The notes: generated by a model not told the origin, from the sequence alone. Shown: positions 39,392 to 58,847, counted from the first letter of the stretch. The stretch: DNA of 64,000 nt from a virus (IMGVR_UViG_3300017963_000253:1-64000); one strand, 5' to 3'. Translations and numbers: made by a program.

Positions 39392-40036
39392 ATGGATAGT
39401 CGAGAGCTGGCCCTTCGGGCCTACCGTTCCAATCCCTCCAATTCCACCTTCCGGCGCGTCGAGTCGGAGTACCGCGGCTGGCTGACGACGGTTTCCGGAA
39501 GCGTCCTCCGGAGGTACCCAGGTTTGACCGGGGTCCGGGAGGACGTCTTGAACGAGGGCCTCCTGGCCCTCTCCCGGAGCGTCAGGCGGTTTCTCTGGTT
39601 CTGCGGGCGCTGCGGAGCGCCGTTCCTCGAGTTCTCGGACCTCCGCGCTCACGCCGCGGCGGAGCACCGCGTCCGCGGGGAGGTGGAGCTGGTCTCCCTC
39701 CGGAAGTTCGCGGAGCAGTCCGCCGGGTACGCCATGAAGCGGACCGCGCTCCGGCTCTACCGTCCGGAGGTCCCCAGCGAGTTCTCGGAGCAGGTCCCGG
39801 ACGAGCGCTGGAGCCGGGACGTCCTAGACGTGGAGCTGCTGGTCCGGCGCGCGGAGCTTCGGATGAGCCGGGACGCCCTCCACCTCCTCCACCGCGTTCT
39901 GGGGACGCCGGAGCCGGATCCCCTCGCCCCGGAGGAGCCGGGTCTCCCGGAGCTGAGGGACCTCCTCCGGGACCTCCCTCAGGCTCATCTTGGTTATGAG
40001 TCCCCGAAGGAGGCGACATGTCGGTACCGGAACTAG
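39392..40036 (+). CDS. sigma70-family-like factor with inserted C2H2 zinc finger
   Basis: Region-2-like EDVLNEGLLALSRSVRRF...SLRKFA...AMKR interrupted by CGRCGAPFLEFSDLRAHAAAEH. Confidence 0.6.
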   Translation: MDSRELALRAYRSNPSNSTFRRVESEYRGWLTTVSGSVLRRYPGLTGVREDVLNEGLLALSRSVRRFLWFCGRCGAPFLEFSDLRAHAAAEHRVRGEVELVSLRKFAEQSAGYAMKRTALRLYRPEVPSEFSEQVPDERWSRDVLDVELLVRRAELRMSRDALHLLHRVLGTPEPDPLAPEEPGLPELRDLLRDLPQAHLGYESPKEATCRYRN

Positions 40037-40725
40037 AGGGACCTCGTTTCAAGCAACTGAACCTGAGCACGCTGCGGAAGACGTCCGCGGAGGTCCTGGG
40101 CTTCGAGCCCCAGGGTCGGAAGATCCGGGAGGCTCACGCGGAGGTGATGGCGGAGCTGGACCGCCGGAGGCACGAACTCCCCTACGTCTGCGGGCGGTGC
40201 AACTCCTCCTTGGACGGGGAGATGAGCAAGTGCTGGGCCTGCGGGTCCGTGATCCAGGACGAGGCGGAGGACGCGCCGCGGATGACCACTGAGGAGGTCG
40301 AGAGTCGCGCCGGGAAGCTGGGGATTGACCCTGGGGAGAAGGGGGAGGAGGAACTCCGCGCGGAGGTGGAGGCGGCGGAGAAGCGGAAGCGGAACCGCCG
40401 CGGGGACCTCGGGGGGATGGAGGCGGAGCGCCTGAACGAGCAGTTGACGGAGGCGATGGGGGACGGTTGGCGGAAGGATAGGACAAAGTTGTATATTTCC
40501 TATTTTGATCCAAGTGGTCAGAAGAGAATCGGAGTCTACAATCGTGGGCTTCAAGTACAATTTTCCGTCAATGATGGAGTTTTGGATCACTTCGAAAATT
40601 TGGAATTTTTGGACAAGGATGCACGACGCAGACGGCACACGGGGCGGACTAACTATATCTATGTTGGGGACGTCTCCCGCGAGGCCTTAGAGGTCGCTCT
40701 CTTCGTTCTACGCAAGTACAGCTGA
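40018..40725 (+). CDS. hypothetical zinc-ribbon protein
   Basis: CGRC...CWAC; AGGAGG RBS. Confidence 0.65.
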   Translation: MSVPELEGPRFKQLNLSTLRKTSAEVLGFEPQGRKIREAHAEVMAELDRRRHELPYVCGRCNSSLDGEMSKCWACGSVIQDEAEDAPRMTTEEVESRAGKLGIDPGEKGEEELRAEVEAAEKRKRNRRGDLGGMEAERLNEQLTEAMGDGWRKDRTKLYISYFDPSGQKRIGVYNRGLQVQFSVNDGVLDHFENLEFLDKDARRRRHTGRTNYIYVGDVSREALEVALFVLRKYS

Positions 40726-40736
40726 CGGGGCTTCTG

Positions 40737-41684
40737 ATGAAGCCTGAAGAGACGCTCGTCCTCGGGGCCGGTCCCGTGGGCTTGATTGCGGCGGAGATCC
40801 TGGGGGCGCGCTACGTGGTGGGGAAGGATCCCGGGGGTTCCAAGACCCTTCGCAACCTGGCTCCAACCTACCTCTGGTGGACCCCCTCTGTGGAGCGCTT
40901 CCTCCTGGATCTTGGGCTGAATTGGGGATCTCGCTGGGTTAAGTTTGGGTGGCTTTGCTCGGGTGAGGTTAGGGACGCCCCCTCCGAGGCGGACTTGAAG
41001 AGCTATTACCGGCGTAGCCGCGGGGGCGTCTCCGGGAAAGTACCCTCCTCCGTGGCCTCCTCCGGGAAGCCGGGGGAGATCGAGGTCTCCAGCGTTCCCC
41101 TGGAGCAGATAATCGACCTTCTCTTGGAGAGGAACCTGATTTACGAGATGGAGGTGGAGTCTATCTTCCACTTGGGAACGGTGATCCGGTTCAATCAATC
41201 CCCGACGGTGGAGTTCCCCGCTACTACGTTGGTCAACACGCTCCCGAGGTCGGTCTTCTGTGAGATGATATTCCCGAAGATGGAGTTCCCACCGGAGGCA
41301 AAGGCGGGTTGGAAGACCTTCGTAAGTGGGGACGCCTACACTAGTGCGTTGGACCGGGTATGGGAGGAGCGGGAGCTTGACTTCCTCTACGTAGCGGACG
41401 AATCGCTCCCGTTCGAGCGCGTGAAGTTCCTGCATGATTCCTGGAAGAACGAGAGGTTCGTCTACGAGTTCAACGCGGTGTCAGTCCCGCCGGAATTCCT
41501 GGATCTGGTCCATGGGAAGCAGGTTTACTCCGCGCCGCTGCAGATCTCGGAGGTCTCCACCCGTCCCAGGGTGGAGGAGTTGGGGGGTAGGGTCCGGAAC
41601 GTCGGGCGGTTGGCGCGGTGGGATCACTCTATCCGCCTTCACGACGTGATAGAGGAACTCTATCGCTGGAGGGATGTACGATGA
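40737..41684 (+). CDS. FAD-dependent oxidoreductase (UDP-galactopyranose mutase/HemY superfamily-like)
   Basis: VLGAGPVGL.AA Rossmann motif, LVNTLP, C-terminal GRLARW. Confidence 0.7.
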   Translation: MKPEETLVLGAGPVGLIAAEILGARYVVGKDPGGSKTLRNLAPTYLWWTPSVERFLLDLGLNWGSRWVKFGWLCSGEVRDAPSEADLKSYYRRSRGGVSGKVPSSVASSGKPGEIEVSSVPLEQIIDLLLERNLIYEMEVESIFHLGTVIRFNQSPTVEFPATTLVNTLPRSVFCEMIFPKMEFPPEAKAGWKTFVSGDAYTSALDRVWEERELDFLYVADESLPFERVKFLHDSWKNERFVYEFNAVSVPPEFLDLVHGKQVYSAPLQISEVSTRPRVEELGGRVRNVGRLARWDHSIRLHDVIEELYRWRDVR

Positions 41685-42628
41685 AGGACGCGTTGGAGGA
41701 GATCTTCGAGACCCAGACCGCGTTCAACCGGAGGTTCTTCGCGGATCGTGGCTTGGACCTGGCGGAACTCTCCGGAGCGGACCGGGCGCAGTGGACGAAG
41801 CAATTCGTCCTCCACGTGGAGGGGGAGCTTCACGAGCTACTCCGGGAGACGAACTGGAAGATGCATCGCCTGGAGGGGAAGCGGGTCAACCGGGGGAACG
41901 TTCTGGAGGAGTGGACGGACTGCTTCAAGTTCCTGCTCGGGCTCGCCAACGTCTGGGGGTTCTCCGCCTCCGAGGTCCTGGAGGAGTTCCGCCGGAAGTC
42001 CCGGGTGGTGGACTACCGTTACGGGATGGAGCAGCGTCTCCGGGCGATCTCTCCGGGGAGTCCGGTGGTGGCGGTGGACATCGACGGGGTTCTGAACGAC
42101 TACCCAGGTTGCTTCCTCCGCTGGGTTTCCCCCCCAGCTGAAGAACCGTTCGAGACGCTTGCGGCGCTCCGGGAGAAGGTGGGTCCCAAGCGGTACCGGG
42201 AGATCAAGGACGAGTACCGGAAGAGCGGGGCGAAGCGGGAGCAGGGGGTTCGACCCGGTGCGCGGGAGATGCTCAACGGACTCCGCGCCGCCGGTTACTC
42301 CGTGGTCCTACTATCCAAGCGTCCCTACTGGCGGTTCTACCGGATCTACGCGGATACGCTGGAGTGGCTGGAGCGGAACGGGCTCCGCTGCGACGCGGTC
42401 CTCTTCCACCGGGAGAAGCACCGGAAGATCCTGGAGGACTTCCCTAACCTTATCGCGATGGTGGAGGACGACCCCGCGGTGGCGCGGGAGATCCTCTCCA
42501 TCGGGGTGGAGGTCTTCTTGGTAGAGGGGGAGCTGAACGTAGGGGCGGAGGTACCCGGGGCAAACAGAATTTCCAACGTCGCGGACGTCGTGACGGAACT
42601 GGAGGAGATTGGGTATGAGTCACGATAG
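41681..42628 (+). CDS. dimeric dUTPase/MazG-type dNTP pyrophosphatase fused to HAD nucleotidase
   Basis: ELHELL.E.NWKMH...VLEEWTD.FKFLL; then VAVDIDGVL...LSKR...K...MVEDDP (HAD motifs I-IV). Confidence 0.85.
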   Translation: MKDALEEIFETQTAFNRRFFADRGLDLAELSGADRAQWTKQFVLHVEGELHELLRETNWKMHRLEGKRVNRGNVLEEWTDCFKFLLGLANVWGFSASEVLEEFRRKSRVVDYRYGMEQRLRAISPGSPVVAVDIDGVLNDYPGCFLRWVSPPAEEPFETLAALREKVGPKRYREIKDEYRKSGAKREQGVRPGAREMLNGLRAAGYSVVLLSKRPYWRFYRIYADTLEWLERNGLRCDAVLFHREKHRKILEDFPNLIAMVEDDPAVAREILSIGVEVFLVEGELNVGAEVPGANRISNVADVVTELEEIGYESR

Positions 42629-43736
42629 AGTAGAGGAGATCCGGAAGTTGCGACGCCTGATGGGAACCGCTCCAGAGGCGGAGCCTGAGTTCGAGACGAA
42701 GTTCTACCGCGGGGTAGAGGGGATCCGCGTGAAGCTGGTAGATGGACCTCGGAACCCCTACCGGGCGATGTACGCGATGGGGGTCTCTACCTGGGGGCAT
42801 ATTCACTCTTTAGCTACTGACCGTTGGGAGGATACACCGCCGGAGGCCCGGGAGGCGGTAGTCCGGGCGGTCCTAGGGTTTAACGCCCTCCCGCTAGCGA
42901 TGGAGGCCCCGAAGTTTACGTTCGAGGTCTATAACCTTACGCGGTGGAGCTTCGATCAGATCGCCCGCGCGCGGATCGGGGCGGTCTTCGCTTCCCTCGG
43001 GACGCGGGATAACAACCATTTGGGGATCCCCTTCCGGATGCACGAGGCGACTTGGAGGAACGAGTCGAAGCGAGGTCTCTTTGTGGGCAACGCCAAGAAC
43101 GCCAAGGACGCGTACCGGACGTTGGTGGAGAGTGGGAGGGGGAGTTGGCAGGAGGCGCGGACGTTCCTCCCGATCTCGGTGGTCCATCGCTTCACGATGT
43201 CGATCAACTTCCTTGCCCTCCGGGGGATGTGCGCCCGGAGGATGACCTTCTCGGAGGCGGAGGACACTGTTGCGGTGGCGTGGCTCCTTCGAGACCGTTT
43301 GATGAAGGCGGACGCCTACCCGCTTCTCGCCGCCCATCTTCGACCCGCTTGTGACGGCGCGGGGACCTGCCGGTATCACAAGGCTCACACGATTTCAGAG
43401 GCCTTTGGGTGTCTTTTCAAGAGCTGTGGTCGACACCCGGTGAAGAGCGCCCCCGGGAACCCGGATTTCGATTACGAGTATGCGGACTTTAACGTCAGTT
43501 GTTCGGACCGAAAGACGATTCAGGATCAGCTGCAGATTTCGATCCCGGAGCGGACCATGGATCCTGACAAGGTGGAACTTACTTCCCGCGACCGTTTCCT
43601 CTTAGGATTTCAGGCTCAGAATGAGGAGGAGTTTGAAGATTGGAGGTGGTACGCGCAGGCGGAGAGAGGGGTGGATGCAAACCCGTTCCCCCTCCCGGAT
43701 TCCGGGGCTGCAGTTGAACCGGTGGACCTCCCGTGA
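42615..43736 (+). CDS. thyX: divergent flavin-dependent thymidylate synthase homolog
   Basis: E.PKFTF.V..LTR...DQIARAR, QEARTFLP, C-terminal P.C....TC...CGR; signature residues altered. Confidence 0.8.
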   Translation: MSHDRVEEIRKLRRLMGTAPEAEPEFETKFYRGVEGIRVKLVDGPRNPYRAMYAMGVSTWGHIHSLATDRWEDTPPEAREAVVRAVLGFNALPLAMEAPKFTFEVYNLTRWSFDQIARARIGAVFASLGTRDNNHLGIPFRMHEATWRNESKRGLFVGNAKNAKDAYRTLVESGRGSWQEARTFLPISVVHRFTMSINFLALRGMCARRMTFSEAEDTVAVAWLLRDRLMKADAYPLLAAHLRPACDGAGTCRYHKAHTISEAFGCLFKSCGRHPVKSAPGNPDFDYEYADFNVSCSDRKTIQDQLQISIPERTMDPDKVELTSRDRFLLGFQAQNEEEFEDWRWYAQAERGVDANPFPLPDSGAAVEPVDLP

Positions 43737-44269
43737 TCCGCGCGCTGGAGGGGGTGAACTTCGTCGGGAAAAGTACGGCTACTAATCTTCTCTCTGTGGA
43801 GTTTGGTTTTCCTGTTTATTCGGATCCTGGAAGGCATGGATTGTTTGAAGATTGGTTAGTTCCGTTTTCTCCGCGTGAATGGCAGGTTCAAGGGACTCAA
43901 AATGCATTAGCTAGTACAGTGTTTTCCAACTGGGTAGACGTAATTTTGGATCGCTGGATCCTCTCGAATTTGGTTCACGATGAGGAGCGGGGATTGAAAA
44001 TCCCGGACCGCGTTATCTGGAAAATTTTGGAGTTGACTGATAATGCGAGGGTGTACCTCCTACATGCGGATCTTTCGGTGGTGTTGGAGCGAGCGGAGGA
44101 GCGTGGTGTGGTAGTAACTGATTCGCTCCGGGATACGATATTCAAGCGGGCAGAAGCCTTTCTTCGTTGGGCCACCGTTTTGGATTCTTACTATGGGGTC
44201 GAAGTTTATCTCGTTAACGCAAACTGGAGTAGTGGAGAGGTTTTCGATGCGATATATCGTAACTGGTAG
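43733..44269 (+). CDS. dNMP (thymidylate-like) kinase
   Basis: ALEGVNFVGKST P-loop, VILDRWILSNLV, LERAEER lid. Confidence 0.85.
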   Translation: MIRALEGVNFVGKSTATNLLSVEFGFPVYSDPGRHGLFEDWLVPFSPREWQVQGTQNALASTVFSNWVDVILDRWILSNLVHDEERGLKIPDRVIWKILELTDNARVYLLHADLSVVLERAEERGVVVTDSLRDTIFKRAEAFLRWATVLDSYYGVEVYLVNANWSSGEVFDAIYRNW

Positions 44270-45254
44270 CAGTGGGATGCTGGGTCATGTCTTGGACGAG
44301 ACCCTTCGGTCCCTGGGTCACGAGCGGTTGATCCCGAGCGGTCGGAACTGGAAGAGCCCTTCCACCGGGGAGATAGAGCCGGACTTCCGGGACCCTGTAT
44401 ATCTTCGTTGGCTGGAGGGGGCGAACGTGGACGTCTTCTTCCACGCCGGGGCGTTGGTGGGGACGACGCGATGTGAGGCGCACGCGGAGGATGCCTGGAG
44501 CTGCAACGTCGAGGCGGTCCGGAGGATCGCGGATATCCTCTCCCGGCGACGGATCTACACCGTCTTCTACGCCACTGCTGCGGAGATGGAGCCGGGGGAG
44601 TATGGGTTGGACCGGCCTATCGACGTGGGACGGACCCCCCGGAACCCGCTTACCCGTTACGGGATTACGAAGTTGGCGGGGCGGGAGTTGATGGAGGTCC
44701 TTTTCCGGGAGCGTGGTGTGGAGGAACTCCTTCTCCAGGTCTATCCTAGCTTTGGCTTCGGAGGGGCGCGGGACGGGAACTCCTGTGTGGCCGACCTTCT
44801 GAAGTGTGCCCTCGGGGTTTATGACCGCAGACCCTTCCTCCCGCTCGCCCCGGAGAACATCAAGGAGGTCACACCGCACTCCTACATCGCGGAACTTTCC
44901 GTCCGCGCCGCGGAGCGACGTCTCTCTGGGAAGATTCCTATCGCGTCTGGGGTCTGGACCCGTTACGCGGAGATCGTGGAGATGGTCGAGGATGTCACCG
45001 GGGAGAAGTTGGACCCGGAGTGGCGTGCGGACCTGGACTACAAGGGGGACTTCTTACATGTACGGGAGGACGTCTTCTCCTTGGCAGAGGATCTGGGGGT
45101 TCCGGTCCTGACGCGGGTGGAGATCAAAGCGGCTCTCGTGGATGAGATGAACGGGATCCTGAACGCGGAGGGTGCCGGGGTGATGGCGAATCACGAGTGG
45201 CGGTTCGCGGAGAAGCTTGTGGAGGCGTTCCCGGGTTGGGAGGGACGTAGATGA
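44247..45254 (+). CDS. NAD-dependent nucleotide-sugar epimerase/reductase (extended SDR)
   Basis: IVTGSSGMLG, FHAGALVG, NV, catalytic YGITK. Confidence 0.85.
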   Translation: MRYIVTGSSGMLGHVLDETLRSLGHERLIPSGRNWKSPSTGEIEPDFRDPVYLRWLEGANVDVFFHAGALVGTTRCEAHAEDAWSCNVEAVRRIADILSRRRIYTVFYATAAEMEPGEYGLDRPIDVGRTPRNPLTRYGITKLAGRELMEVLFRERGVEELLLQVYPSFGFGGARDGNSCVADLLKCALGVYDRRPFLPLAPENIKEVTPHSYIAELSVRAAERRLSGKIPIASGVWTRYAEIVEMVEDVTGEKLDPEWRADLDYKGDFLHVREDVFSLAEDLGVPVLTRVEIKAALVDEMNGILNAEGAGVMANHEWRFAEKLVEAFPGWEGRR

Positions 45255-45934
45255 TTAGATATTTGAATAAATTAGTTGAAGTATTGACTAATTTGGATAA
45301 CGAAGAGCGTATTGAGGCTTTGAATTTGGTAAAGACGGAGCTTCATAAAATTTCTCCTTTCAAGGCGGAGCCTGTGGATTGTGTGCTTTGGGAGCGTACT
45401 TCTCGTGTAATTGCTAACGATTACAATCCTAATGCTGTTGCTCCTCCGGAAATGGAGTTACTTCGGATTTCGATAGAGTCGGATGGATTCACCCAACCTG
45501 TTGTGACGGATTTCAGTGACGAGTCTGAGGTGTTTGTGGTGGTGGATGGATTTCACCGTAATCGAGTGGCTCGAGAGTGTGAATCTGTGGTGGATAAGTT
45601 GGGTGGTTACCTTCCGATAGTTCAGATACGTGCTGATCAGAAGGGGCGTTCAGATAGAATTGCTTCGACGATTCGTCACAATCGCGCAAGGGGTAAGCAT
45701 CAAATCGCAAAGATGTCTGATATTGTGATTGAATTGAAGCGGAGAAATTGGTCTGACAAGAAGATAGGTCGTGAACTTGGGATGGATCCTGATGAGGTGT
45801 TGCGATTGGCTCAGATTACTGGGTTAGCAGAAGCGTTTCGGGACAAGGAGTTCACTCGGGCCTGGGAGGCAGATTTGAAGTTGGATGACGAGTTGATCGA
45901 GGGATTGGTCGAAGAGGTCGACTTGGATGAGTAG
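45251..45934 (+). CDS. ibrB: ParB-like N-terminal domain protein (IbrB-like)
   Basis: EPVDCVLW, ANDYNPNAVAPPEM.LL..SI..DGFTQP, VVDGFHR, STIRHNRARGKH, LGMD.DEVLRL.Q. Confidence 0.85.
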   Translation: MIRYLNKLVEVLTNLDNEERIEALNLVKTELHKISPFKAEPVDCVLWERTSRVIANDYNPNAVAPPEMELLRISIESDGFTQPVVTDFSDESEVFVVVDGFHRNRVARECESVVDKLGGYLPIVQIRADQKGRSDRIASTIRHNRARGKHQIAKMSDIVIELKRRNWSDKKIGRELGMDPDEVLRLAQITGLAEAFRDKEFTRAWEADLKLDDELIEGLVEEVDLDE

Positions 45935-46343
45935 GTTGGAAACGATAGATTTTGAGAGAGTTCAACCTGGTAGAGTTTACTTTCATTACTTGGATTTGGA
46001 GGAGTATCACGCCGGGTTTTGGAAGTCTGTTTACAATCGGGATATTAAGGCGCGCTTGACTGCTACTTCGGTTAAGATTTTGCGGGATCGGGATATTTTT
46101 AGTGGTGCAGTTCAACGTGTGATAAAGGAGTGGCCAAACTCTTGTCTAGCGGAATTTACTGCTCCTGGAAATCACAGGGCTTGGTTGGGTCAGGCTGCGT
46201 GCTGTCTCGTTGCTGGTGTTCCGGAGAACCTGACTCGGTTAGCGTGGTGGAAGTTAACTGAGGTCCAAAGAATCGCCGCTAACGATATTGCGGAGATTGC
46301 TATTCGAGATTGGAGGATAAGACGTGTTGAAACGAAGACTTGA
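45927..46343 (+). CDS. hypothetical protein of the IbrAB module
   Basis: Overlaps both neighbours, same low GC; WPNSC...N.RAWLGQAAC...W..L motif. Confidence 0.7.
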   Translation: MSRLETIDFERVQPGRVYFHYLDLEEYHAGFWKSVYNRDIKARLTATSVKILRDRDIFSGAVQRVIKEWPNSCLAEFTAPGNHRAWLGQAACCLVAGVPENLTRLAWWKLTEVQRIAANDIAEIAIRDWRIRRVETKT

Positions 46344-47556
46344 GATCAACGTCTTGGAGGCAGCTCGGGAACGGATAGCGCGGGTTTTCGACGATTTTGA
46401 GAGAATTTATGTGGCGTTTAGTGGGGGTAAGGACTCAACTGTGATGATGCACTTGGCGTGTGAAGAGGCACGCCGTCGGGAGTGTAGAGTTGGGATCTTA
46501 ATGGTGGATTTGGAAGGTTACTTTGAAATCACGGTGAAACACTGCGTTGAAATGTTTGAAATGTACGCGGATGTGATAGAGCCGTTTTGGATTTGTCTTC
46601 CGATTCACCTTCGTAATGCAGTGAGTGTGTTTGAGCCGTTTTGGGTTTGTTGGGATCCTAAAGCAGAAGGGGCTTGGGTTCGACGACCTCCAAAGGAAGC
46701 GATTGTTGATTCAGGGTACTTTCCTTTTTTCCGTGAAGGTATGGAGTTTGAGGAATTTGTGCCGCTATTTGGGGATTGGTACGCAGATGGGAAGCGGTGT
46801 GCGTGTCTTGTGGGTATCCGCACGGACGAGAGTTTGAATCGCTTTCGAACAATTGCGATTTCCCAAAAGGAGAGATTTGAGGGTCTTTCTTGGACGACGA
46901 AGATCACCAAGGATCTCTATAACGTATACCCTATTTACGATTGGTCTGTTGAAGATATTTGGGTATATCACGCGAAGTTTGGAGATAAGCCTCACAATCG
47001 GCTGTACGATTTGATGCACCAAGCGGGTATGACGCCTTCCCAGATGCGAATTTGTCAACCTTATGGAGACGATCAAAGGCGTAACTTGTGGCTATTTCAC
47101 ATTATCGAACCTAAGACTTGGGCCAGGATTGTTGCACGTGTGAATGGTGCTAATGGGGGAGCACTTTATATTCAGGAGTGGGGAAATATTAATGGTTATC
47201 GAAAGATAACTAAACCTGTTGGGCATACTTGGAGAAGTTTCTCAGAACTCCTCGTGGCTTCGATGCCAGAAAAGTCAAAGATTCACTATCGTAACAAGAT
47301 CCTTCTTTTTGAAAAGTGGTGGACAGAGCGTGGTTACCCTGAAGGGATTCCTGATGAGGCGGATCCACGAATGGAGGCTAATCGCAAAGCTCCAAGTTGG
47401 CGGAGAGTATGTAAATCGTTACTTAGAAACGATTATTGGTGTAAGGGACTTGGATTTAGTCAGCAGAAGAGTGCTGCCTACAAGGCTTACTTGGAGTTGA
47501 TGAAGCGGCGGAAGAAATCTTGGGGTGTCAGTGATGTTAAGTTGGGGTTTGTATGA
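46324..47556 (+). CDS. ibrA: PAPS reductase/PP-loop family protein with DUF3440 (IbrA-like)
   Basis: FSGGKDS, LVGIRTDESLNR, YPIYDW...DIW, MRICQPYG, RVNGAN, PSWRR.CK.LL.ND.WC. Confidence 0.88.
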   Translation: MLKRRLEINVLEAARERIARVFDDFERIYVAFSGGKDSTVMMHLACEEARRRECRVGILMVDLEGYFEITVKHCVEMFEMYADVIEPFWICLPIHLRNAVSVFEPFWVCWDPKAEGAWVRRPPKEAIVDSGYFPFFREGMEFEEFVPLFGDWYADGKRCACLVGIRTDESLNRFRTIAISQKERFEGLSWTTKITKDLYNVYPIYDWSVEDIWVYHAKFGDKPHNRLYDLMHQAGMTPSQMRICQPYGDDQRRNLWLFHIIEPKTWARIVARVNGANGGALYIQEWGNINGYRKITKPVGHTWRSFSELLVASMPEKSKIHYRNKILLFEKWWTERGYPEGIPDEADPRMEANRKAPSWRRVCKSLLRNDYWCKGLGFSQQKSAAYKAYLELMKRRKKSWGVSDVKLGFV

Positions 47557-50480
47557 GAAGTCCACGTGTTAAGAGACTTCAAGAGAACGGGTTTCGATCT
47601 GGAGCTTCTCTTGTAGCTGATGCGGACACTCAGGCGTTTGCGGAGGATCAAGTAGAGCACCGCGCGCAGTACCAGCAGACCGCTGCGTCCGTGGAGGAGG
47701 TCAAGGACAAGCGGAGCGTTGAGGACCTCCAGGACGCTACGGACTTCGACGACTTGAAGAAGGCGGCTTGGACCTTCAATCCGGGGACGGAGTACTACCA
47801 CGGGTGGTCGGAGGGAAACGACATAATCTTACTTCGGAGGGATCCGGAGACGGGGCGGCGGATCCGGGAGATTCACCCGTTTGAGTGGTACTTCTACGTC
47901 ACTCGGGAGGACTATGAGAGTGTACCCAAGGATTCCTGGGATTGGCTCTGTAGTTGTGGAACGCTCGCGGAGAAGGTGGTTCCGGACGAGAACTATCCTG
48001 ATTTGTACTATCGGGTTTACGTAAAGAACCCTGTTCCGAAGTTGGATAAGAAGAGGATCTTTTCGAATGTCGGAGATCCGGATCGTGGTGCGAATTGGGC
48101 GATTCCTTTCTATCGAGGTGAGAGTTCAAGATCTATCAGATGGCCACGGGACCGGGAGAAGTGGACGAGAGTTCACAAAGTGATCAATTGGTGTGAGCGA
48201 AAGGGAGTGACACCGTTGGAGGCGGATCTTACGCCGAAGCAGCGGTTTCTCACGGATTACGATATAACGATCACTCCGAAATTTCGGATAGGGTTCTTCG
48301 ATATTGAGACGGATGACTCTGTTGGAGGGTTCGATAAGAAGGAGCAGTGTCGAATTCTCTCAATAGCTTGGGAGGGGGACCGCTTCGAGGAAGATCCAAC
48401 TGATTGTGGATTCTTGTTGCTACAGGAGGAGACGGACGAGGCTGAGAAGAAGTTGCTTTTGGAGTTCAAGCGTAGTTGCGTCAATAAATACGACGTATTG
48501 TCGGCTTGGAATGGGACTGGGTTTGACTTTCCTGTTCTATTCTATCGGTTTTGGAAGCACAAAATTCGAATCGACTGGCGTTATCACCTCTTTGCAGATC
48601 CGCTTCCTATCTTCAAGCGGCACTACGTTAGAGCCGGAGGGGATGCGATTTCCTACTCCCTTGATTCTATCGGGGAGAAGGTTCTGAAGATGAATAAGAT
48701 CGACTGGAGGACGATCTTTCGGAAACGTCACCCTGGGGTGGTCCCGAAGTTCATCAACCTCTACCGGCACGACCCGGAGCTTTTGGAGGAGTACAACCGT
48801 CTGGACGCCACAATCCTCCGGAAGCTGGAGGCGTTCACCGGGTTCGTGGCGATCGAGCAGATCTTCTGCCGGATTGCGAACGGGTTCCCGAACGATTTTC
48901 AGATTTCGACTAAGGTGGACCAGCTCTTACTGAAGAAGGGGTTCAAGGAGGGGCATCACTTCCCGACGAGATACTGGTCTCCTGGTAAGCCGGAGAAGTA
49001 CGAAGGAGCTTACGTATTTCCGCCGGTTCGCGGGATGCACCGGAACGTTGCCGCGTTTGACTTCAAGAGCCTGTACCCCTCGATGATCTCCAGTTTCAAT
49101 ATCTCCCCGGAGACAATCGTGAAGGAGGAGAACAGGGCGGATTTTGAGGAGAAGGACCTTTGCAGGATCCCGGAACTTGATTTGGAGCGGGAGGACGGGG
49201 ACGGGGAGATAGAGGTCTTGCAGAAGGGTGGTTCCACCTTCAGGTTGGACAAGCAGGGGTACCTCTCGCAGATGTTTGAGCGTACTTTGATGAGGAGGAA
49301 GAAGTACCAGGACCTTCAGAAGGAGCGTTTGAAGGTCACCGGGACGACTCAGGACGATCTCTTCCTCCTCTACTATCGCTTGGCTTACTCCTTCAAGCGG
49401 TTGGGGTTATCCTTCTACGGAGATATCGGGAACTCCAGGTCCAGGTTCTACGACACTGAGGTGGCGGAGGCGATCACTCTCTCTGGTCAGTTCTTTATCA
49501 AGGAAACAGCTAAATACGCCCAAGAGTGCGGAATGATTCCACTTTATGGGGACACCGATTCCATCTACGTCCAGTTAGCACCTACTGAACAGGAGTGGGA
49601 TTCGCAGGAGGAGCGGATCGCGGAGTTGAACGAAATTGGGGAACGCTTCGTGGAGTATTGTCAGGAGCGTTATCTGAAGATCCTCAAGGAGCACAATTGC
49701 AACCTGGATTGGAACCTTATCTTCCTGGAGTTCGAGGACACCTACGACCGGATTTTCTTCATCGTCAAGAAGCGGTACGCCGGGAGGATGCTCTCCCACA
49801 AGGGGGGGAAGACGGACCACGTGGAGGTCAAGGGTCTCGAGGTGATGCGGAGCGATTGCTCCGGGAAAACGCGGGCGCTTCAGCAAGCGGTGTTGGACGG
49901 AATTCTCATGACGGGGATGACCGCGGAGCAGCTGGAGCGGGAACTGATAGAGCCGGAGTTCAACAGGTGCGTCTCCGGTGAACTTACCGTGGACGAGGTC
50001 TGCATCGGGAAGGGGATCTCCAAGGAGCCGGAGAAGTACAAGACGACCCCGCTCCACGTGGCTTTGGCACAGGAGATCAAGGACCACGGGCGGGAGTTCT
50101 TCGTTGGGATGAAGGTGGAGTACGTGGTCACCGGGGTGAAGCCGAAGCTCCAGGGCGTGACGCGAGAGGAGTACGAGGACTCGAACGGGGAGTTGGTTTA
50201 CGACCCGGAGTACTACTGGGATCGGGTGGTCTACCCCGCCTCGATGAGGATCCTGGAGGTCTGTTACCCGGAGAAGGACTGGACTCGCTGGAAGGTGGCG
50301 GACAATCGGAGGCGGCGGAAATTGGTGGACCGCTACAAGATCTGGTTAGCTGACCCGAAGCGGGTAGAGAAGGCGCTCCTCCAGATCCGGGAGAATAAGC
50401 GTGGACTCCTAGGACCGCCGGAACTGGCGGAACTCCGGACCGCGCCCCGCGTCCGCATCTTGGATAGGAGTGAGGGATGA
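47553..50480 (+). CDS. family B DNA polymerase with 3'-5' exonuclease
   Basis: FDIETD, WNGTGFDFP, YNRLD; DFKSLYPS, variant KRLGLSFYG, YGDTDS, KKRYAG, KGLE..RSD. Confidence 0.95.
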   Translation: MRSPRVKRLQENGFRSGASLVADADTQAFAEDQVEHRAQYQQTAASVEEVKDKRSVEDLQDATDFDDLKKAAWTFNPGTEYYHGWSEGNDIILLRRDPETGRRIREIHPFEWYFYVTREDYESVPKDSWDWLCSCGTLAEKVVPDENYPDLYYRVYVKNPVPKLDKKRIFSNVGDPDRGANWAIPFYRGESSRSIRWPRDREKWTRVHKVINWCERKGVTPLEADLTPKQRFLTDYDITITPKFRIGFFDIETDDSVGGFDKKEQCRILSIAWEGDRFEEDPTDCGFLLLQEETDEAEKKLLLEFKRSCVNKYDVLSAWNGTGFDFPVLFYRFWKHKIRIDWRYHLFADPLPIFKRHYVRAGGDAISYSLDSIGEKVLKMNKIDWRTIFRKRHPGVVPKFINLYRHDPELLEEYNRLDATILRKLEAFTGFVAIEQIFCRIANGFPNDFQISTKVDQLLLKKGFKEGHHFPTRYWSPGKPEKYEGAYVFPPVRGMHRNVAAFDFKSLYPSMISSFNISPETIVKEENRADFEEKDLCRIPELDLEREDGDGEIEVLQKGGSTFRLDKQGYLSQMFERTLMRRKKYQDLQKERLKVTGTTQDDLFLLYYRLAYSFKRLGLSFYGDIGNSRSRFYDTEVAEAITLSGQFFIKETAKYAQECGMIPLYGDTDSIYVQLAPTEQEWDSQEERIAELNEIGERFVEYCQERYLKILKEHNCNLDWNLIFLEFEDTYDRIFFIVKKRYAGRMLSHKGGKTDHVEVKGLEVMRSDCSGKTRALQQAVLDGILMTGMTAEQLERELIEPEFNRCVSGELTVDEVCIGKGISKEPEKYKTTPLHVALAQEIKDHGREFFVGMKVEYVVTGVKPKLQGVTREEYEDSNGELVYDPEYYWDRVVYPASMRILEVCYPEKDWTRWKVADNRRRRKLVDRYKIWLADPKRVEKALLQIRENKRGLLGPPELAELRTAPRVRILDRSEG

Positions 50481-57600: not shown

Positions 57601-57993
57601 ATGGACGCTTCTGTGAATAAGGTCATTTTGATCGGGCGGCTGGGAACGGACCCGGAACTCCGGTACTTTGACTCCGGGAAGGCGCTCTGTAACTTCTCCC
57701 TGGCGACTAACCGGAGTTGGAAGGACCGAAACGGGGAGAGTCAGGAGCGGACGGACTGGCACCGTATCGTAACCTGGTCGCGACTTGCGGAGAACTGCTC
57801 CAAGTACCTGGAGAAGGGAAGGAAGGTCTTCGTGGAGGGGCGTCTGGAGACCCGGAACTGGGAGGACGAGGAGGGGAAGCGTCACTACATCACGGAGGTG
57901 GTGGCGAGCAATGTACTCTTTCTCGGCGGCGGGAGCGTTAACGAGGGACCTCCTCCGACGCAGGAGGAATTGGACGAGGACCTTCCCTTTTGA
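57601..57993 (+). CDS. ssb: single-stranded DNA-binding protein
   Basis: [17 protein letters not shown]...FSLAT...TDWHRIV...KG..VFVEGRL.TR.W; ends DEDLPF. Confidence 0.95.
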
Positions 57994-58847
57994 GACTGAA
58001 GCAATCCATTTGCCCGGGGTACGTTTGGGAGGACCCGGAGGGTCTGCACCTGATCGCTTGCGGGGACTTCCGGGACCCGGGCCTGCTTCGCGGGCTCCTG
58101 AAGCGGTTCGGGGAGGAGGAGTTCCAACTCACGCTCGCGGATCCTCCCTACGCGGTGGCATCGGAGAAGCAGCGGATCCAGTTGGAGGGGCGTAAGGACC
58201 AGTTCCTGACGGAGAAGTGGGACCTCCTGACACCGGAGGAACTGAGAGACCTCCTCGTTCGTCTGTGTCTGGAGGTCACGCGGGTTACTCCCGCCGGGAA
58301 CGTCTGGATCTGGACCTCCGACTGGTACGTCTCGGAGCTGAAGTGGGAGCTGAAGCGTCTCGGACTCCGGGTCTGGCCCACCTACGTCTGGTGCAAGTCC
58401 AACCCACCTTGGCAGGTCCGGAAGTCGAACCCCGCCTCCGCCTGCGAGTTCCTGGTGATGGCCAGCAAGAAGGGGAACTATTTTGAACTAGACGCCCTCC
58501 CGAAGCAGCGAAACTGGTTCGTTGCCTCCGCGTCCGGGGAGTTGGATTACTCCCCTGCGGTCTCCCCCTACTGGGTGGAGCGCCCGGTGGTTCACGCCGC
58601 GGAGCGCCTCCGGAAGGTGGGGGAGAAGGAGTTCCTGAATCGCGCCCAGAAGCCGCTAGACGTGACGGAGGCCCTTGTTCGCGCCGGGTGTCCGGAGGGT
58701 GGTTTGCTCCTGGACCTCTGCGGGGGGACCGGAACAGGGTTACTCGCAGCGGAGCGGACGGGTCGCCGCTGCGTCTACGTGGAGAAGGACCCAACGCAGG
58801 TGCGGGCGGCGGGACGCCGCCTCCTGGAGGAGCGGAGGAATGGTTAA
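57990..58847 (+). CDS. DNA amino-methyltransferase (m6A/m4C, beta class), orphan
   Basis: ADPPY precedes QKP and [12 protein letters not shown]-binding motif. Confidence 0.88.

Follow-up and report, generated by a model that had tools for sequence, protein, structure and literature searches.

We analyzed the first 64 kb (the window) of one 75,133-bp IMG/VR virus record, IMGVR_UViG_3300017963_000253, which is estimated to be ~74% complete. The window has a GC content of 63%, all of its genes are on the + strand, and the presence of tail sheath and tape-measure genes assigns the virus to the myoviruses. Positions 40737-50480 hold nine open reading frames (ORFs) that include a divergent homolog of the thymidylate synthase ThyX, and a prediction made from the DNA alone (the sequence-only reading) had joined all nine into one pathway for DNA base hypermodification. 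The nine genes do not form one pathway; the core is located at 40737-44269, with an optional SDR gene that extends it to 45254. On the evidence of gene content, conservation, and structure prediction, we consider it somewhat favored (probability about 0.55) that this core is a pre-replicative, virus-specific module making a C5-substituted deoxyuridine monophosphate (dUMP) other than thymidylate (dTMP).

The gene array and its conserved core

All nine ORFs were found, and the sequence-only description of them as overlapping and coupled was borne out: the overlaps are 4 nt at 41681/41684, 43733/43736, 45251/45254, 47553/47556, and 50477/50480, and 8 to 23 nt at the remaining junctions of the array. 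For three genes an internal start was preferred over that of the longest ORF (ATG 41681 for MazG-HAD, ATG 42615 for the ThyX-like gene, and ATG 44247 for the SDR gene, the last with a Shine-Dalgarno-like GGAGAGG upstream). The gene identities assigned earlier agreed with the domain calls from Pfam, PHROG, and fold comparison (Table 1). No DNA-level relative of the region was detected among GenBank phages by megablast.

Using the ThyX-like protein, we gathered a non-redundant set of 86 related loci from metagenomes (IMG/VR and JGI/ENA) and searched them with profiles built from the window proteins; in 23 of these loci, termed well flanked, the ThyX-like gene has 5 kb or more of sequence to either side. 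Six related phage records (G001-G006) lie behind the loci, and L001-L005 are close relatives. Co-occurrence in other phages, the check put forward with the sequence-only reading, was seen with the ThyX-like gene in the well-flanked loci for the flavoprotein (22/23), MazG-HAD (22/23), and the deoxynucleoside monophosphate (dNMP) kinase (21/23), but was absent for IbrB, the 138-aa gene, and IbrA (0 of the 86 loci); the SDR gene was present in 10 of the 23, including L001 and L002 among the close relatives, and PolB was not specific. The MazG-HAD fusion was found in 56 of the 86 loci, the order flavoprotein, MazG-HAD, ThyX-like was retained down to 41-47% identity of the ThyX-like protein, and the core sits in a replication block beside a polymerase.

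The loci with the most divergent ThyX-like genes (L071, L077, L078, L080, L083, L085, L086, and L089) retain the kinase, lack the flavoprotein and MazG-HAD nearby, and instead carry a YfbR-type HD 5'-deoxynucleotidase and a nucleoside-deoxyribosyltransferase-like gene beside the ThyX-like gene. At 13 loci, the ThyX-like gene is adjoined by one for a small (~230 aa) ThyA-fold protein that keeps the catalytic Cys and has an invariant Asp at the position of Escherichia coli Asn177. The Asn177-to-Asp change is the switch that gives dCMP hydroxymethylase its cytosine specificity, and phages with this neighbor may also modify cytosine. We infer that such exchange of pool-editing and tailoring genes around a fixed core is the usual look of hypermodification loci.

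The sequence-only reading had counted IbrB, the gene of unassigned family, and IbrA as pathway members, a claim that was not upheld. These three genes have GC contents of 45.5-46.5% (44-46% at third codon positions, GC3), compared to 60-69% (GC3 74-90%) for their native neighbors. The IbrA/IbrB pairing itself is well matched (PF01507 at 46.6 bits, PF11922 at 115.8 bits, and phrog_2302 at 5e-85 for IbrA, with the ParB-like match of IbrB given in Table 1). IbrA shares 35-58% identity with genes from unrelated phages that infect Chlorobi, cyanobacteria (Microcystis), Pseudomonas, E. coli, and Firmicutes, and matches in E. coli and Streptococcus phages are annotated IbrA/IbrB; none of the other region genes queried against GenBank phages exceeded ~32% identity. 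Judging from a GC content of 46% versus 63% for the genome, the absence from all 86 loci, and the up to 58% identity of IbrA to genes of unrelated phages, we conclude that these three genes make up a recently acquired, highly mobile foreign cassette outside the module. PADLOC returned only weak DndC/BrxP-like matches for IbrA and nothing for the core module, and our literature search found no paper assigning a function to IbrAB in phages. At L001, the place between the SDR and PolB genes that the cassette takes in our virus is occupied by a UDG-superfamily gene (389 aa, with a C-terminal UDG domain); UDG domains joined to polymerases have been reported for phages with T-modified DNA (PMC13697223).

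PolB is 66-72% identical in L001-L004 and 26% identical to its best GenBank relatives, which are from haloarchaeal viruses. Unbiased clustering of neighboring genes revealed a DnaE-type polymerase beside the module in 51 loci instead, and the earlier suggestion of a PolB specially adapted to the module was rejected on this synteny.

Table 1. Coordinates of the module genes, their neighbors, and related features (window numbering unless a locus is named)
Feature	Coordinates	Strand	Basis or content
UGM/PPOX/amine-oxidase-fold small flavoprotein (predicted FAD-type), 315 aa, core	40737-41684	+	fold model
MazG/dimeric-dUTPase-type pyrophosphatase and HAD phosphatase (NT5C/PNKP type) fusion, core	41681-42628	+	domains, motifs
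Divergent ThyX-fold enzyme, 373 aa, core	42615-43736	+	PF02511, fold model
P-loop dNMP kinase, thymidylate-kinase type, module gene	43733-44269	+	phrog_761, P-loop
Extended SDR (NDP-sugar epimerase/reductase type), accessory	44247-45254	+	PF01370, PF04321, motifs
IbrB, ParB-like	45251-45934	+	phrog_2159, 1e-63
138-aa gene	45927-46343	+	no family found
IbrA, PAPS_reduct and DUF3440	46324-47556	+	PF01507, PF11922, phrog_2302
Family B DNA polymerase (PolB) with 3'-5' exonuclease	47553-50480	+	PF00136, 155 bits
Replication/recombination block	~29.7-59.5 kb	+	SNF2-type helicase, loader, DnaB, primase, nine-gene set, RecA-like, Mre11/Rad50-like, methylase, RuvC
Matrixin-type zinc-metallopeptidase motif protein, 227 aa	37264-37947	+	motif
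Serine-recombinase-like gene, 305 aa	38402-39319	+	Resolvase N-terminal domain, Recombinase
Tandem paralogue-like genes	39392-40036 and 40018-40725	+	one similarity cluster
N6/N4 DNA methyltransferase	57990-58847	+	
Short SDR-like gene, 224 aa	63058-63732	+	
Class II ribonucleotide reductase	L012:2556-5231		
Ogg-like HhH DNA glycosylase	L012:6163-6717		
dCMP deaminase, 282 aa	L012:6728-7576		
UDG-superfamily gene	L001:12594-13763		C-terminal UDG domain
Small ThyA-fold neighbors (examples; nine other loci)	L008:9327-9983, L054:2981-3634, L062:8894-9586, L065:8909-9601		catalytic Cys, Asp for Asn177

The ThyX-like enzyme and its partners

The ThyX-like protein matched Thy1 (PF02511) at 37.5 bits, above the Pfam cut-off of 24.8, and scored 18.9 bits on the TIGR02170 equivalog model versus a cut-off of 87.9. 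Its AlphaFold2 model (predicted local distance difference test score, pLDDT, of 92) aligned with Mycobacterium tuberculosis (Mtb) ThyX 3gwc_B over 208 residues (Z 17.4, root-mean-square deviation (rmsd) 2.9, Foldseek TM 0.69 by target) and gave Z 15.9 with both Thermotoga maritima ThyX and 4p5b, the PolB of polyoxin synthesis, a ThyX-fold UMP methylase with a changed substrate. The fold is thus held in common with T. maritima TM0449 and Mtb Rv2754c (Z 15.9-17.4 over ~205 residues), as are the elements SR...Q..RxR and EAR..LP and a late Arg. Unlike these enzymes, the ThyX-like protein has a Cys/His-rich insert and a C-terminal tail, is accompanied by a separate flavoprotein, and usually shares its genome with a canonical ThyX. 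We found 205 homologs in metagenomes, typically of 317-390 aa; tblastn against GenBank phages returned canonical ThyX only, at 24-29% identity, and no paper giving a function to the family was found.

Residues were mapped by a HMMER alignment to Mtb ThyX together with a conservation table of 54 sequences; single-sequence profile comparison with canonical ThyX aligned short stretches only. Seven residues of the ThyX-like protein (R112, Q117, R120, R122, R133, R184, and R211) are retained and invariant in the 54 sequences. R112, R120, R122, R133, R184, and R211 align with Mtb R87, R95, R97, R107, R172, and R199, respectively, the dUMP-binding arginines of that enzyme. The ThyX motif RHRx7S-xRY is replaced: the protein reads RARIGAVFASLGTRD, in which the His has become Ala, the spacing is one residue shorter (RARx6S), and the Tyr has become Asp, and the change in the RHR motif is constant across the 54 family members. 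Written as substitutions, the changes are RHR to RAR, LEH to MEA, SQRY to TRD, and SEHAD to SEAED. The His of the EH motif aligns with an Ala (the motif reads ALPLAMEA), and the equivalents of Mtb His203 and of the motif Tyr (Tyr108) are also replaced. The position of the folate-stacking T. maritima His53 is presumably non-His as well, by an ungapped extension from the T. maritima sequence, outside the HMMER alignment. Altogether ~32 residues are invariant over the 54 sequences at 45-66% identity.

The insert (about residues 246-300, with C248, C254, H257, and C273) comprises ~55 residues ahead of the last ThyX helix and presumably binds metal. Some homologs (P0116, P0117, P0119, and P0121) contain inteins whose insertion point falls precisely between Ala and Ser in RARx6|S; inteins typically occupy functionally important sites. 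As judged from the alignment, the nucleotide pocket seems to have been preserved and the cofactor side remodeled.

Five of the six related records (G001, G003, G004, G005, and G006) have two PF02511 matches each: a weak copy in the module (44-62 bits) and a stronger copy (97-163 bits) located far from it. The strong copies that we read (G003 and G005) have intact GHES..EH and RHRx7SxR[FY] motifs. No ThyA was detected in G001-G005, and the 75-kb contig gave no match to PF00303 or to the profile for the small ThyA-like protein. Most relatives thus keep a canonical ThyX alongside, which makes plain dTMP synthesis an unlikely role for the rewired copy. The public annotation of the gene as "thymidylate synthase ThyX" is probably wrong.

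The flavoprotein model (pLDDT 92) has an N-terminal GAGPVG motif and aligned over 304 residues with 4dsg_A (VIA Z 20.5, rmsd 3.7), a UDP-galactopyranose mutase (UGM); PPOX was next at Z 17.7. With UGM and the PPOX/amine oxidases (GR2-type FAD enzymes) it shares the fold, the N-terminal GxGxxG, and the C-terminal GR(L/Y)AxW/Y, but it is ~50-150 residues shorter, lacks any Pfam match (including GLF), and is confined to viruses. Only the last 29 residues of the flavoprotein profile aligned with E. coli Glf, and tblastn against GenBank phages yielded no match. The family comprises ~150 representative relatives of ~300 aa; its Atlas clusters are 95-100% viral, and their Atlas neighbors are PPOX/amine oxidases. 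The flavoprotein is a core partner of the ThyX-like enzyme, and there is no evident sign that it supplies a transferase with sugar. Directly upstream of it, close relatives keep a tandem pair of genes that fall in one similarity cluster and so appear to be paralogues; one has a weak zinc-ribbon match, and no Pfam or PHROG family was found for the pair.

The MazG-HAD fusion matched PF08761 (dUTPase_2) at 28.3 bits, PF06941 (NT5C-like HAD) at 21 bits, below the cut-off of 24.8, and both phrog_415 and phrog_173; its translation displays the MazG acidic motifs ExxE...ExxD and the HAD motif DxDGV. The kinase matched phrog_761 at 6e-10 and PF02223 weakly and has a GKS P-loop. Its gene has a GC content of 48.6% (GC3 51%) and its product is 32-39% identical to the kinase of relatives, versus 60-66% for the flanking genes; this composition suggests that it is probably a xenologous replacement, a foreign gene swapped in with the function kept. 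The SDR matched PF01370 at 51 bits and PF04321 at 32.7 bits, and has both TGxxGxxG and YxxxK. A second, short SDR-like gene is located near the end of the window (Table 1).

Comparison with known systems

To our knowledge, all known phage pathways for pyrimidine replacement start from a ThyA-fold enzyme. The T-even phages (gp56 dCTPase, gp42 dCMP hydroxymethylase, and gp1 dNMP kinase) and SPO1/PhiW-14 (hmdUMP synthase and dTTPase/dUTPase) follow the same logic of parts, and the module jointly encodes the trio of predicted dNTP pyrophosphatase, mononucleotide C5-modifying enzyme, and dNMP kinase. It differs from those pathways in that its modifying enzyme has the ThyX fold and not that of a ThyA-type hydroxymethylase, in that a flavoprotein and a HAD phosphatase are obligatory, and in that no glycosyltransferase was found. 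The ThyA homologs of RB69 and DLP3 were shown in 2026 to make 5-hydroxy-dCMP, and the flavin on the RB69 homolog has been analyzed (PMC13326640); these examples indicate that thymidylate-synthase folds are readily repurposed.

Distant cousins of the module were found in Pbunavirus LBL3, a myovirus in which gp57, gp63, and gp55 lie beside a polymerase. Its gp57, annotated as an "FAD-dependent thymidylate synthase", has the ThyX fold but reads RTR where canonical ThyX has RHR; it is missing the EH His, contains the same LxPxC...C insert, and hits the family profile with 4e-16. The match of gp63 is to the flavoprotein profile (3e-8), and gp55 has a PNKP-type HAD. The Pbunavirus genes differ in being unlinked to ours by tblastn, in the Thy1 score of gp57 (110 bits versus 37.5), in a HAD unfused to MazG, and in another type of polymerase. 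Virion DNA of Pbunavirus F8/14-1 carries, at approximately a quarter of its thymidines and in TG context, substitute nucleosides with masses of 362 and 390 Da, which are described as sugar-alcohol and aldopentose derivatives with the genes unassigned (Yee et al. 2025, PMC12191111). By our own arithmetic, 362 Da fits deoxyuridine with a C5H11O4 chain at C5. Homologs of gp57 are also present in Pantoea and Erwinia phages and in Escherichia virus TH32 (69 kb), which we take to be a Wifcevirus. The wifceviruses, relatives of Pbunavirus, resist restriction (PMC11990801).

Bacillus phage SP-15 encodes an aberrant second Thy1-family protein, gp130, beside the SDR gp129 and near the kinase-like gp134 (2e-11) and the HAD gp135 (2e-11). 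This gp130 has been proposed to be a hydroxymethyluridylate synthase, and the SP-15 base is dihydroxypentyl-uracil, with a five-carbon chain at C5 (Kropinski et al. 2018, PMC5977210). Neither gp130 nor gp131 matched the family profiles, and no flavoprotein match was obtained among the eleven SP-15 genes tested; SP-15 was therefore dropped as a carrier of the same module. SP-15 gp90 and gp127 are the same two gene types as the YfbR-type HD 5'-deoxynucleotidase and the deoxyribosyltransferase-like neighbor of the divergent loci.

The proposed route, its alternatives, and the surrounding genes

Of the hypermodification pathway put forward in the sequence-only reading, we retain the ThyX-fold enzyme that is unlike a dTMP synthase and its linkage to a pyrophosphatase/phosphatase and a kinase, to which the relatives add its coexistence with a canonical ThyX; the roles given to IbrAB, PolB, sugar transfer, and the SDR as essential parts are not supported. 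Beside the observed gene set, linkage, residue changes, and paralogy in relatives, we infer every chemical step of the route. The MazG half would convert a competing or precursor dNTP (dUTP or dTTP) to the dNMP, and the HAD half would destroy a competing dNMP or remove a side-chain phosphate. The ThyX-fold enzyme would still bind a deoxyuridylate-type mononucleotide, having lost folate/FAD methyl transfer, and together with the small flavoprotein, which would supply redox or iminium chemistry, would place a non-methyl group on C5. A longer oxygenated carbon chain (a polyhydroxyalkyl group as in Pbunavirus) would be our preference for that group, and a simpler hydroxymethyl-type base is equally allowed. 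The phage kinase would then raise the new dNMP to the diphosphate, a host kinase and the phage polymerase would finish the process, and the SDR would trim the side chain in the lineages that have it. Beyond the window (locus L012, genome positions 63000-75133), the record encodes a class II ribonucleotide reductase, an Ogg-like HhH DNA glycosylase, a dCMP deaminase, and a flap endonuclease; the deaminase and reductase could feed dUMP to the module.

Several points weigh against this route. The complete relative G002 has the rewired ThyX-like copy only, without a second ThyX or a ThyA, and dTMP synthesis in G002 may fall to the rewired enzyme unless the phage depends on its host. The virus's own contig is only ~74% complete, and its genome may or may not encode a canonical ThyX. 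The residue correspondences come from sequence alignment and not from superposed coordinates, flavin binding by the ThyX-like enzyme and the flavoprotein is a prediction, and GenBank searches found no cultured phage with the ThyX-like branch. LBL3 gp57 scores 110 bits on Thy1 versus 47.9 on the family profile, so the link to Pbunavirus is distant, and a modification of only about a quarter of the T residues in TG context is not explained by a pool enzyme alone. Finally, the textbook route to dTTP likewise uses a dUTPase, followed by a ThyX and a thymidylate kinase.

An ordinary supply of dTTP would have MazG act as a dUTPase, the ThyX-like protein as a divergent working dTMP synthase (maybe with the flavoprotein as its reductase), the kinase as a thymidylate kinase, and the second ThyX as a paralogue of different timing or expression. 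Such a supply would match the enzyme order dUTP to dUMP to dTMP to dTDP, the retained dUMP-aligned arginines, the gene content of G002, the presence of a dCMP deaminase, and the 13 loci that pair a cytosine-type ThyA-fold enzyme with the ThyX-like gene, an arrangement resembling that of T4, where dTMP comes from the other synthase. We regard it as unlikely, however, since the family as a whole has lost the RHR and EH histidines along with the motif Tyr and the counterpart of Mtb His203, the TIGR02170 score is far below its cut-off, five of six relatives keep a canonical ThyX too, and neither the HAD phosphatase nor the obligatory flavoprotein has a role in plain dTMP synthesis.

The sequence-only reading had noted that no glycosyltransferase is recognizable in the window, and the searches agreed within and beyond it: PF00534 and PF00535, the two families searched among transferases, gave no match in the contig or in the four related records G001-G004, three of which are complete. 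Its further suggestion of sugar transfer by a glycosyltransferase, a feature of T-even/SPO1-type pathways, was not supported, given the lack of a GT1/GT2 match. In the absence of a standard GT-A/GT-B enzyme, installation at the nucleotide stage would fit better than T4-like glycosylation if a sugar-like group is added. A rather improbable variant is that the module makes a simple replacement nucleotide (e.g. a 5-hydroxymethyl-type dUMP) that is incorporated and then completed on the DNA by products of genes located elsewhere, as happens in PhiW-14, M6, and ViI. Thymidine hypermodifications described so far reach completion after replication (PMC8989533), the partial, TG-restricted marking of Pbunavirus DNA points to a DNA-level step, and 26% of the genome is missing, all of which would accommodate a second stage. 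It is opposed by the glycosyltransferase result and by the recurrent neighbors of the module, among which no gene for a DNA-level step was seen, although the 5-hmU DNA kinase and aGPT-Pplase families were not searched by name.

The loss of the canonical ThyX residues would also fit a non-catalytic scaffold, or the module might make or destroy a nucleotide metabolite for pool sanitation, anti-defense, or inhibition of a host enzyme, and the pyrophosphatases, the phosphatases, and, at more distant loci, the HD 5'-nucleotidases and deoxyribosyltransferase-like genes are degradative in character. We consider such a non-catalytic role, or one outside DNA, very improbable: the invariant residues include the nucleotide-aligned arginines, inteins lie at the motif, a dNMP kinase is constantly near, and the module is always in the replication block beside a polymerase.

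Within the preferred route to a C5-substituted dUMP, a more specific and doubtful possibility is that the ThyX-like enzyme and the flavoprotein join C5 of dUMP through a new C-C bond to a multi-carbon aldehyde or iminium, derived from a sugar or from another source, and then reduce the product; the chemistry would be of ThyX type, but methylene-folate would not be the donor. If true, the synthase still missing for the polyhydroxyalkyl-uracil bases of Pbunavirus F8/14-1 would be this pair, and the long C5 linkers in SP-15 and YerA41 may likewise arise by such chemistry, at the nucleotide stage and without a glycosyltransferase. More generally, if pyrimidine replacement can run through a ThyX-fold enzyme and a flavoprotein dedicated to it, it would have been invented independently a second time, and a fold so far known only as a methylase would gain a new type of reaction. 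The core module is widespread, with >200 metagenomic protein relatives and distant cousins in therapeutic Pseudomonas phages and restriction-resisting coliphages. Assignment of its product would explain orphan DNA modifications, sharpen the prediction of restriction escape and of sensitivity to modification-dependent nucleases, and could yield enzymes for modified DNA. The window contributes an uncultured high-GC branch, places IbrAB and PolB outside the module, and through its relatives independently confirms the second canonical ThyX.

Other genes of the replication block were also noted (Table 1). A serine-recombinase-like gene, with ~61% identity in L001-L005, looks odd in an apparently lytic myovirus. 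Between it and the primase gene lies the gene for the protein with a matrixin-type zinc-metallopeptidase motif, which is kept in L002 and L004, and an N6/N4 DNA methyltransferase is encoded farther downstream in the window.

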